A DNA stretch of 25,963 bases from a virus (taxonomy: Duplodnaviria > Caudoviricetes). This document shows, one piece after another, positions 5,731 to 17,243 of the stretch (positions within the stretch are counted from its first letter, which is position 1; the number at the start of each line of letters is the position of its first letter). The notes under the pieces are model-generated. The model searched no databases. It worked only from the letters and a program-made list of their open reading frames with translations, and was not told the origin of the DNA. Location of the stretch: positions 1-25,963 of IMG/VR virus record IMGVR_UViG_3300025103_000137; one strand, given 5' to 3'. A program made the translations under genes and the position numbers.

Positions 5731-6351
5731 ATGGAATACTTACACAGGCTCACAGAGTCAAAAATGACTGGTAAATTAAAAGGAATACCAGCTTTAAATA
5801 CTAACACCTTGACAAATGAATACTGTAGCAAAATGAGAAGCACAGACACTAATTGCATTTGTGAAATTTGTTATAGTGCCTCGATGTTAGAAGGTGCAAG
5901 GAAAAATTGCGCTCCATCATGGGAGAAGAATTCAAAGGCCTTAGAGAACATTATACCCCTTGATAATTTACCCTCGATTAACGCTCATACTTTCCGCTTC
6001 CATGCGCATGGAGAGTTAATCAACTACGAGCATTTAATAAACTTTATTAACATAGCTAAATTGAACCCTGATACACATTTTGCTTTATGGACTAAGAGAA
6101 GCAATCTAGTTAAGCAGTTCTTAGAGTGCGAGGAAGCACCCAAAAACATCATTTTTATTTATTCTAATCCAAAAACCAATAGAATAATAGAAAAGCCCCC
6201 TAAAGGCTTTCACAAGGTTTTTAACGCTTCATATGATGACAGTGTTAAAGAAGGCCAAGTGCATTGCACTGGTCAAAAATGCGTTGACTGTATGGCATGT
6301 TATAGACATAACGAAAATACAGTTATAATCGAGAAAGTAAAACGGAGATAA
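5731..6351 (+). CDS. Gp88-like Cys-rich early protein (possible Fe-S/radical-SAM-like fold)
   Basis: SKM.GKL start, C..M.....C.CEICY cluster, FRFHAHGEL, HFALWTKR and C-terminal C.G.KC.DC..CY. Resembles the phage gene 88 family from memory. Confidence 0.6.
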   Translation: MEYLHRLTESKMTGKLKGIPALNTNTLTNEYCSKMRSTDTNCICEICYSASMLEGARKNCAPSWEKNSKALENIIPLDNLPSINAHTFRFHAHGELINYEHLINFINIAKLNPDTHFALWTKRSNLVKQFLECEEAPKNIIFIYSNPKTNRIIEKPPKGFHKVFNASYDDSVKEGQVHCTGQKCVDCMACYRHNENTVIIEKVKRR

Positions 6352-6551: not shown

Positions 6552-6667
6552 TGATATTAGATATATTCATTGCCTTACTGGTTATTATAGGCCTGTGTTG
6601 TGTTGTAGTAACTCAGGACTATGCAAAAGAGATTAACAATAAAATAGACAAGGAATTACAAGAATGA
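6551..6667 (+). CDS. Small single-TM protein (38 aa, MILDIFIALLVIIGLCCVVVTQ...)
   Basis: TAATG overlap with the previous stop, GGGGG RBS, and a hydrophobic N-terminal stretch of about 20 residues. Confidence 0.65.
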   Translation: MILDIFIALLVIIGLCCVVVTQDYAKEINNKIDKELQE

Positions 6668-6819
6668 AAACACTTTATAAAATACTTATGACACTAGGTG
6701 CAATCGGTGTTATAATTAATACAAGTATATTATTATGGCAAGTACAAGTGATTATCAGCCTTAATAATTCACATAATTGGCTTGACTTAACCTTCGATAC
6801 ATGGTTTAATAGCCTATAG
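6664..6819 (+). CDS. Small single-TM protein (51 aa, MKTLYKILMTLGAIGVIINTSILLWQV...)
   Basis: ATGA overlap, AAGGA RBS, hydrophobic helix. Confidence 0.65.
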   Translation: MKTLYKILMTLGAIGVIINTSILLWQVQVIISLNNSHNWLDLTFDTWFNSL

Positions 6820-6830
6820 AGATAATCTCC

Positions 6831-7109
6831 GAGTCCTGAGCATGACTTAATAAACTGCTCCCAAATTTGTGTAGAGTTAAGAGTACAAATATGTATAACC
6901 TTATCCGCACATCTTACCGGTATCTAGTGCCAATGGTGGAAGCCCTGAAAATCTAGAGAGGAGTCCTGAGTATGACATAAAACTGCTCACTTACTGGCTG
7001 TAATTTTGTATAGTGTATCCTAAGAACATTACAACAGTACGCACTTCCTAAGTATGAAGTCTGCTAATAAACTGCTTACTAACCATGAGTTTGTACAATC
7101 CATGTTAGT
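6831..7109 (+). ncRNA. Structured RNA array: three H-type pseudoknot repeats, each followed by a unique hairpin
   Basis: Repeats at 6831-6860, 6961-6989 and 7043-7078 follow stem1-CT-RAGYA-T-stem1'-A-rich linker ending AAAC-TGCTY. Both stems show compensatory changes. No ORF of 60 aa or more spans the region. Confidence 0.7.
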
Positions 7110-7118
7110 TGTTAGAAA

Positions 7119-7159
7119 TATAGGCTATTGCTATTTACTCATGAGGGCGATAGTCTATA
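7119..7159 (+). promoter_or_regulatory. 14-bp RNA hairpin (RNase III-like site) before the next cistron
   Basis: TATAGGCTATTGCT pairs with GGCGATAGTCTATA using three G-U pairs. Confidence 0.55.
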
Positions 7160-7187
7160 CTCCTATTAACTAAGAAAAGGATAAAAT

Positions 7188-7427
7188 ATGGAAATGCGAA
7201 ACTGGTCGGGAGATGCCACAAAAATCTTCAAAGGTAAGACTGTTGATAAAATTAGATATACGGCAGAAGATGAACTAGAAAGTCTTGGTTGGGATACGGC
7301 AACACCAGTTATTTTCTTCACTGATGGCTCATGGATATTAACCAGTAGTGATGATGAGGGAAATTATGGTGGTGCATTCTTTACTTCTTCCTCTGAGATG
7401 GAAGTTATACCACAAGGGGGTAGATGA
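7188..7427 (+). CDS. Early hypothetical protein
   Basis: 79 aa, AAGGA RBS, D-D-E-G-N-x-G-G motif. Confidence 0.75.
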   Translation: MEMRNWSGDATKIFKGKTVDKIRYTAEDELESLGWDTATPVIFFTDGSWILTSSDDEGNYGGAFFTSSSEMEVIPQGGR

Positions 7428-7738
7428 TGAAAGATATTACAAAGAAAGTACATAAAGTTGTTGCTGATATTAAAGAAGTAAAATTAGCACCCAAAGGCTT
7501 GGGTTTTTATAATGTAACTATATCTAAATCAACAACATTTGAAGATACCTTTGCATACAGTCAAGAAGAAGCAGAGGAATTAGCACTTAGTAGTTTTGAA
7601 ACTGGTGGTGGGCAAGGTGCATTAGATGGTGTATCTGCCGAGGCAGAAGCAGAATTGCAAACTGACGATAGAGCAGAAGTACAAGAGATGTATGAATGTT
7701 GTTGGAATGAAGAACCTATTGCCGAGCCGAGAGGTTAA
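7424..7738 (+). CDS. Acidic early hypothetical protein
   Basis: 104 aa, overlapping start/stop, GGGGG RBS. Confidence 0.7.
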   Translation: MMKDITKKVHKVVADIKEVKLAPKGLGFYNVTISKSTTFEDTFAYSQEEAEELALSSFETGGGQGALDGVSAEAEAELQTDDRAEVQEMYECCWNEEPIAEPRG

Positions 7739-8698: not shown

Positions 8699-8938
8699 AT
8701 GAGTGGAATTAAAAGATATATTAGTTGGTGCGAAGATAAGGGCTATGTTAACGAGTCTGGTGAGGTCGAGAGCATGGATTTTGTAGACGAATACCTAGAA
8801 ACTAAGGAGTTTGAAAGGGAACAGAGAGAACAGGCCTTGAAGGTAGCTTTAAGCGAGGCTGACGAGGACTCCTTGTTTGGTATGATGCACAAGTTAGGCT
8901 ACTTAGTACAACGGCACAAGGATTTAAAAGGGAGTTAG
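8699..8938 (+). CDS. Acidic hypothetical protein, last gene of the early cluster
   Basis: 79 aa, GGGAG RBS. Confidence 0.72.
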   Translation: MSGIKRYISWCEDKGYVNESGEVESMDFVDEYLETKEFEREQREQALKVALSEADEDSLFGMMHKLGYLVQRHKDLKGS

Positions 8939-9016
8939 GGTGAATATCCTAACGAGGGTTCAAATCCCTCTACATGGTGCATGAGGAGAATTTCTCATGG
9001 GGGGTTCGATTCCCCC
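8934..9016 (+). ncRNA. Tandem pair of tRNA-half-like units (8-bp arm with GAAU loop plus canonical T-arm)
   Basis: GTTAGGGT-GAAT-ATCCTAAC-GAGGG-TTCAAAT-CCCTC (8934-8970) and CATGAGGA-GAAT-TTCTCATG-GGGGG-TTCGATT-CCCCC (8980-9016). Same geometry, different stem sequences. Confidence 0.65.
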
Positions 9017-9023
9017 TTTTTTT
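9000..9023 (+). terminator. Intrinsic terminator of the early operon (the second T-arm doubles as the terminator hairpin)
   Basis: GGGGG-TTCGATT-CCCCC followed by TTTTTTT. Confidence 0.65.
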
Positions 9024-9035
9024 ATGTACGATTGC

Positions 9036-9064: not shown

Positions 9065-9144
9065 ACTACCATTCTAAGAAAGAAATTCATTGAACCAATT
9101 TATTGTTTATATAAATAAATAACTTTTAATCAATGTTACTTACT

Positions 9145-9208
9145 TAGTATTACTAAGAGTGTAGTAGTTTTTACTTCCATTTTTTCTACTACACTTTTAG
9201 TAGTATTA
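9145..9208 (+). ncRNA. 23-bp hairpin with an 18-nt pyrimidine-rich loop in the SSB leader (possible sRNA or RNase III substrate)
   Basis: 9145-9167 pairs without gaps to 9186-9208. Three G-U pairs favour plus-strand RNA. Loop TTTTTACTTCCATTTTTT. Confidence 0.55.
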
Positions 9209-9261
9209 CTTAGAATACTGCTAGATGTAAAATTAAATGTTAACTATAAGGAGATGTAGAA

Positions 9262-17003: not shown

Positions 17004-17243
17004 ATGTTAGAGAAAATAAAGAATGGTGCTGATGGTGCTATAGATGTAGGTATTAAGTTGATTAGCTTATCAATTGTATTACAGATTATCTTTGGACAAA
17101 AGGTAGCCTTCCTTACAGGAAATGTAATTGGTTCTATACTTGATATAGTTTGGACTCTTGGTAATGCAGGACTAGCAGGAATAATCGCAGCCGGTATTAT
17201 TTGGAAACTACTCGATAAAGATATAACGAGTGGAGGCAAGTAA
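17004..17243 (+). CDS. Small multi-TM membrane protein
   Basis: 79 aa, two to three Gly/Ile-rich hydrophobic segments, AAGGAG RBS. Confidence 0.75.
   Translation: MLEKIKNGADGAIDVGIKLISLSIVLQIIFGQKVAFLTGNVIGSILDIVWTLGNAGLAGIIAAGIIWKLLDKDITSGGK

Follow-up and report, generated by a model that had tools for sequence, protein, structure and literature searches.

What purpose is served by a run of very small pseudoknots, separated by unrelated hairpins, in a stretch of a phage genome that encodes no protein? The window, by which we mean the whole stretch of DNA analysed here (25,963 nt, 57% complete by a completeness tool's estimate), belongs to a marine podophage. Terminase and portal genes lie leftward in it, and a T7-like primase/helicase and a family A polymerase lie rightward, the polymerase being at most 43% identical to those of cultured pelagiphages and roseophages. 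The cassette is non-coding and is surrounded by small ORFs of unknown function, which extend from the terminase small subunit to the replication genes. Gene order would put it in the early region, where a preliminary description of this DNA had also placed it.

Pseudoknots and hairpins in the window

The preliminary description had recognised three copies of an H-type pseudoknot, and all three (type A in Table 1) stand as it wrote them. A descriptor constraining only CU, AAAC and the pairings matched exactly these three on the + strand of the window and nothing on the - strand, and 200 dinucleotide shuffles of the window gave 0.045 matches on average and 1 at most. In pseudoknot 1 the hinge is position 6843 and the loop ends with AAAC. 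The CU loop, the U hinge and AAAC had been called invariant; this holds for the three copies, but the hinge varies beyond them (U in 119, A in 13 and C in 6 of 138). One of the spacer hairpins, placed at 6923-6956, is part of a fourth, divergent knot, of type B, whose long loop encloses a T-loop-like 2-bp hairpin (6935-6945). The other spacer hairpins fold as had been stated, but only the first clearly beats its shuffles. In 20 distinct knots with a GGUGGAA hairpin in the long loop, either of type B or of type A with a T-loop, both partners change in four of the five pairs of stem 2, and their stem-2 covariation score was reached by 0 of 500 shuffles; stem 1, where two registers are mixed, was left uncounted in this alignment. 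The nested fold of 361 nt is unremarkable (z -0.29), as expected because nested folding ignores pseudoknots.

Table 1. Coordinates of the cassette's elements and of the ORFs on either side of it.
Feature	Positions	Strand	Description
51-codon ORF	6664..6819	+	Hydrophobic stretch; stop 16 nt ahead of the loop of pseudoknot 1
Pseudoknot 1, type A	6832..6860	+	Stem 1 6832-6835/6844-6847; CU; stem 2 6838-6842/6856-6860
Cargo hairpin S3	6868..6911	+	Irregular; z -2.5; 7/300 shuffles as stable
Pseudoknot, type B	6919..6957	+	Stem 1 6919-6921/6929-6931; stem 2 6923-6927/6953-6957
Pseudoknot 2, type A	6963..6988	+	Stem 1 of 3 bp
Cargo hairpin S14	6992..7039	+	S12/S14 family; 56/300 shuffles as stable
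Pseudoknot 3, type A	7043..7077	+	Stem 1 of 5 bp; outer pair of stem 2 A-U
Cargo hairpin S4	7078..7109	+	Bulged A; 32/300 shuffles as stable
Closing long hairpin	7112..7170	+	Just upstream of the next gene's ribosome-binding site
First downstream gene	7188..7427	+	Hypervariable among relatives

No Rfam family matches the array, whether the query is the whole window, 381 nt alone, 20 knot loci or 12 related cassettes; the preliminary description had recognised no named family either. Twister, pistol and hammerhead ribozymes, compared by eye with their consensus structures, were set aside with no Rfam match, and so was stop-codon readthrough at the 51-codon gene, where a second stop follows two codons on. 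The 51-codon protein and its 15-nt spacing to the knot are kept in four diverged relatives, and profile searches with it returned no family match.

With regard to the cargo, S3 has seven members among the relatives' cassettes, window included, S14 shows one compensatory change in L246, and the top of S4 recurs nested within another module, S1. The long hairpin that bounds the cassette starts beyond the interval originally described (6831..7109) and is its most stable part (z -3.5; 0 of 300 shuffles as stable). Its consensus over 14 sequences comprises 16 pairs and a variable base, and two of the pairs show compensatory changes. Under the helix-size rule that we assume for RNase III sites (about two turns), it is a candidate site for this enzyme. 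RNase III is reported to process T7 transcripts at specific sites (PMC6938266).

Exchange of modules among relatives

A pattern built on the closing hairpin retrieved 27 viral and 78 metagenome loci; one of them, L232, seems to be the window's own contig and was left out. Once the window is added, 105 regions collapse to 66 distinct ones, 52 of them carrying knots: two knots in 7, three in 17, four in 6 and five in 1. Since 14 regions are knotless and 21 have a single knot (some of the 66 being cut by contig ends), the cargo is dispensable; in the minimal cassette, of which seven loci are shown, a stop, a knot and the long hairpin follow one another with no cargo at all. Spacers of at least 20 nt fall into 21 clusters, which recur in differing orders. 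Variation of the spacers between relatives, a point raised in the preliminary description, is thus borne out, with 21 kinds of interchangeable module, mostly hairpins, in the 66 regions. The cargo of relatives measures 34-171 nt, pieces of the knot and of other modules recur inside modules, and phages whose 206-residue neighbour protein is 94-96% identical have unlike cassette contents.

Modules are tied to what follows them. Behind S3 the type B knot comes every time (10 of 10) and behind S12/14 the knot-3 variant (6 of 6), and a fixed downstream partner was likewise found for S7 (5/5), S1 (12/12) and S2 (9/9). The upstream knot, on the contrary, is free, with eight variants before S1 and seven before S2. 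This places the point of exchange at the knot's 3′ end, which is conserved; the tie could also follow simply because stem 1 has to stay paired. The suggestion in the preliminary description that the knots might be nuclease blocks setting cargo RNAs free would be compatible with this, but it had drawn the unit as a knot followed by its cargo, an order that has to be reversed, the cargo going with the downstream knot.

In two near-complete relatives the closing-hairpin pattern occurs at the cassette site only. Relatives with 77-80% identity in the 128-residue protein lack the knot and the closing hairpin at the equivalent place, and a terminator and a promoter, read by eye, are found there. In L031 the flanks are unlike those of the window and the modules are near-identical. 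As the window is incomplete, a second cassette site in the same phages is possible. A scan of 6820-7110 found no promoter-like or terminator-like sites; a promoter of the cassette's own right before pseudoknot 1 was dismissed, the scan being negative and the region differing in L135, L138 and L139. Behind the closing hairpin, the relatives' genes begin with 31 distinct nine-residue starts, several of them near-variants. The ORF of the 206-residue protein (5731-6351) has a weak match to GP88 (E 2.9e-7) and is confined to the closest relatives. In a related phage (L144:1620-1750) a short repeat, CATGGATGG, is present in several copies close to the divergence point.

What do the modules contain? 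A z of -2 or lower was reached in only 5 of the 21. S1, S8 and S10 share a kink-turn with an invariant tandem GA and compensatory stems; across nine variants 98.8% of the cells are paired and three pairs are compensatory (0 of 500 shuffles). A short closed ORF (5-14 codons) behind a motif resembling a ribosome site is present in 3 of 21 modules, the longest, of 14 codons, in S2. Judged by their sequences, the modules are non-coding and structured. In S2, carried by L172 and others, an AGUA/GAA motif was noticed by eye that presumably resembles loop E.

A small knot carried by many phages

Two IMG/VR pattern scans for the knot returned 121 and 120 stretches, from estimated totals of about 530 and 810. 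Among the 69 distinct matches of the first scan, the free pairs 3 and 4 of stem 1 were Watson-Crick in all 69 and in 64, respectively (shuffle maxima 46 and 35), and the outer stem-2 pair was Watson-Crick in 63, G-U in 6 and A-C in none. With stem 1 fully free, pairs 1 to 4 held in 68, 70, 68 and 62 of 85 matches (shuffle maxima 64, 44, 47 and 35) and pairing was not kept at pair 5; these shuffle tests disregard kinship, and four pair types were found at several positions. The covariation of both stems, proposed from three copies, is therefore upheld across phages, and it marks the knot as an H-type fold that would operate at the RNA level.

On its own, the knot is a common phage element of many host groups and is nearly always single, at least two knots per locus being present in 1 of the 120 loci listed. 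A stop codon lies on the same strand within 40 nt upstream in 27 of the 61 copies with enough flank, and on the other strand in 6. A U-rich tail follows 10 of 64 copies, and a tRNA begins 3-6 nt downstream of 4 of 152. Among 11 cultured phages checked, eight carry the knot intact (S-RIM4, Labelle, Edson, ParMal1, RHph_Y65, Molivia, NMeng1 and H101), phiA050 and Aioli have one with a 2-bp first stem, and the match in Vibrio phage 1.188.A holds no intact knot. Six of these matches begin 5-10 nt past an annotated stop, and in two cases an annotated tRNA follows after 4-6 nt; in Arthrobacter phage Molivia the order is stop, knot, tRNA. In two classes of bacteria the pattern matched 1 of 301 genomes apiece, which we regard as background because the controls gave as many matches or more (1 and 5). 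A conserved small GC-rich hairpin lies about 20 nt upstream of many single knots (L002, L005, L011 and similar loci).

Several known elements share features with the array. The wcaG RNA of cyanophages (RF01761) has repeated small units and a UGG-led segment after a stem, but its unit sequence is different and its covariance model finds no match in the window. A wcaG-like pairing of GGUGGAA with tRNA 3′ ends was rejected, since it reaches at most 7 nt among the 64 tRNAs of G001 and G002, conservation does not extend to the leading U, and the pattern matched 11 times against 15 in the control, never at a tRNA. STAXI RNA (RF01728; PMC2864571) is also a pseudoknot in two or three copies on mobile DNA, but its units abut, contain a UUCG hairpin and other loops, and leave no variable cargo between them; STAXI was rejected, with no covariance-model match and no UUCG hairpin in our array. 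Features that define a CRISPR array are absent: the spacers are 34-171 nt long, folded and recurrent, the modules have no match in three candidate host genomes, and no cas gene was found among the flanking ORFs scanned. Searches of the literature, mostly by title and chiefly among openly accessible papers, turned up no account of the knot or the array in phages. The supplements of PMC10690425, with over ten thousand candidate phage RNAs, may hold the knot motif.

What the cassette might do

Comparison of sequences establishes that the knots exist and covary, that modules are exchanged, and where the exchange breaks. On this basis we favour, with a probability of about 40%, a reading in which the knots are 3′ caps and recombination joints and the modules give rise to host-directed RNAs. 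The cassette, with its four knots and three interchangeable hairpin modules, would be transcribed from the upstream early genes and freed by an RNase III cut at the closing hairpin. The knots would then cap RNA 3′ ends against host 3′-to-5′ exonucleases, and the capped module RNAs would pile up separately as stable species, probably acting on host RNA-binding proteins or RNAs; the knots would also mark the joints at which relatives trade modules. A 3′ cap is favoured because three contexts would put a new 3′ end right behind the knot, namely the candidate RNase III hairpin, the 5′ end of a tRNA and a U-rich tail.

Is the cassette transcribed? Eighteen RNA runs hold a small share of 6600-7500, and eight were compared. 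In X2, X3, X5 and X6, from four studies, RNA contigs span 6801-7123, and in three or four of these runs loose contig ends pass, at the border of a knot, into a different module or knot. At 88% likeness, cover of the cassette is weak in X9 and absent in X10, X11 and X17. These data are contigs from runs chosen for this region and speak for presence only, with ends and strand not given and DNA as a possible source.

As for targets, the window's three modules have no tRNA, rRNA or genome match in three candidate hosts. Module S6, carried by relatives only (L178, L198, L221, L225, L244, L255 and L179), aligns antisense to the initiator tRNA of G001, with two gaps and a score of 40; four variants score 35 and one 29, and the best of 1000 shuffles against 64 tRNAs reached 34, with 21 modules tested. 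Co-folding ranked the initiator tRNA first for three of the four S6 variants tried, at only -5.6 to -7.0 kcal/mol. In two variant types one block of the match is lost, the match lies partly within S6's own stem, and S6 is possibly the relic of a tRNA gene; two near-complete relatives carry no tyrosine integrase. Complementarity to rRNA was taken as chance, one of 27 stretches beating all of only 25 shuffles. An extended version of our reading sees a phage arsenal of knot-capped small RNAs traded like gene cassettes, each against a different host factor, in which the kink-turn and T-loop modules would be decoys for proteins or tRNAs and S6 an antisense RNA to the initiator tRNA; we regard it as speculative and improbable.

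Could the knots act only in cis? They might be mere punctuation and recombination joints, the hairpins being shuffled leftovers, or spacers that adjust the stability of the early mRNAs on either side, with no action in trans, an explanation that we find doubtful. The model would be the PeSL cassettes of T4-type phages, in which short repeats likewise form the joints for shuffling within an early region described as hyperplastic (PMC2839356); a PeSL consists of a sigma-70 promoter and a terminator and shuffles protein genes, whereas the joints in the window are pseudoknots and the shuffled units RNA folds. Such a role would agree with the occasional absence of cargo, the equal shuffling of downstream genes, the terminator and promoter that distant relatives have (by eye) at a comparable place, the knot fragments and pieces of one another that modules hold, and the merely modest stability of most modules relative to shuffles. 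Against it, the modules are nearly free of ORFs, keep an exact kink-turn through compensatory change, turn up repeatedly across many phages and have reached L031, and one of them, S6, aligns antisense to the initiator tRNA.

Alternatively, the knot could stop a host 5′-to-3′ exonuclease, RNase J, in the manner of coremin and other xrRNAs, and so shield the hairpin or gene behind it; this we judge unlikely. Coremin/xrRNA-C and xrRNA-WCC, from plant viruses and other RNA viruses (PMC6546385, PMC10520033, PMC10321173), share with the knot a very small H-type fold; the first stem has 3-5 bp and is often GUC/GAC, and the element often stands right behind a stop codon, is sometimes repeated and has a hairpin next to it. 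The common core includes a short stem and an A-rich linker ending AAACU (PMC6546385, PMC10321173), which is present in the three type A copies of the window, and the type A knots of the array each have a hairpin 0-7 nt behind, as coremin requires. An ATG ORF begins on the same strand within 60 nt downstream of 30 of 61 copies, compared with 3 on the other strand. The host range is skewed too: seven of the eight intact cultured-phage knots come from cyanobacterial, actinobacterial, Bacillus or alphaproteobacterial hosts, and of the 41 genomes from G001's class, RNase J was found in 39 (a tally that includes the unpublished G035, on which the claim does not depend) and in 1 of 61 of G002's class. 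It is this coremin likeness and host skew that favour a 5′ block. However, the knot, found in DNA phages, differs from coremin in its 8-nt loop starting with CU, its 5-bp second stem and its hinge base, and it breaks the loop rules of both coremin types: the xrRNA-C loop consensus is YGAD / YGNNAD, but the second loop base is U in all copies, and xrRNA-WCC needs G as its single first-loop base and a 3-bp second stem, where the knot has CU and 5 bp. The second hairpin, seen in the array and the minimal cassettes, directly follows just 13 of 64 single dispersed copies; gammaproteobacterial phages carry one intact knot and two with 2-bp stems; and if cleavage does take place in the closing hairpin, the minimal cassette would leave a 5′ block almost nothing to shield. 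The coremin papers, in the parts consulted, describe no test in bacteria.

A third possibility, put forward in the preliminary description, is that the array serves to divert a type III toxin: as a decoy, this pseudo-ToxI-like RNA would be cut by the toxin into inhibiting pseudoknot monomers. The several H-type knots with A-rich loops, their variable copy number and their phage non-coding locus do recall ToxI, antiQ and CptI, and phage phiTE with its pseudo-ToxI provides a precedent (PMC3475682). In type III antitoxins, nevertheless, the repeats are head-to-tail and of a single length, 34-36 nt in the ToxIN family (PMC5086642), whereas the knots here start at 6832, 6963 and 7043, 131 and 80 nt apart, with unrelated cargo between copies and no constant unit (units of about 80-131 nt or more), and with the A-runs within the knot and not in linkers. 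There is no sequence match: no Rfam antitoxin was hit at E <= 5 or 10, though Rfam may omit some antitoxins; no toxin, a gene to be expected beside true antitoxins only, was found among the flanking ORFs scanned, and the ToxN profile matched nowhere, its controls included. Because the knot is also mostly single and spread across many host groups, the idea is not borne out and we deem it very improbable. Least credible of all is that the element works as single-stranded DNA, as a recombination or replication signal (a question also raised for STAXI): it adjoins the genome divergence point and marks exchange points, and DNA too tolerates G-T pairs, but it is strictly co-oriented with genes, sits at stops and before tRNAs, and has modules with RNA-specific motifs, and the two near-complete relatives lack a tyrosine integrase.

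Phage counter-defence is known mainly in the form of proteins, plus a few single RNA mimics. If our preferred reading of 3′ caps, joints and host-directed modules is true, a variable set of structured RNAs assembled by recombination would be a new format for it. What is unusual is the shuffled non-coding cassette, which lies outside every family tested; the knot alone would be a variant of a coremin-like kind, and the modules may constitute a shifting repertoire of small RNAs directed against the host. As RNAs, all 21 are short and open to testing, and the 27-nt knot, with its many host groups, would be a candidate for a very small exonuclease block acting in bacteria.

Elsewhere in the window, the + strand at 8924-9024 gives a weak Rfam tRNA-Sec match (31 bits against a cut-off of 47) but really consists of two units of a stem and a T arm, with a U tract at the end; one T arm is identical at 17 of 18 positions to that of tRNA-Ser of G002, and the element recurs as a module in the L179/L256 cassette. 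At 9130-9215 a long inverted repeat with compensatory-looking changes in distant relatives lies upstream of the 128-residue gene, and near it, at 9214-9249, RNA contigs of three runs start. A 79-residue hydrophobic protein (17004-17243), whose gene is well covered in RNA runs, is present in 155 relatives and is 84-100% conserved among the 120 listed. It also occurs on five small contigs, which belong to four assemblies (two alphaproteobacterial, one gammaproteobacterial and one archaeal).
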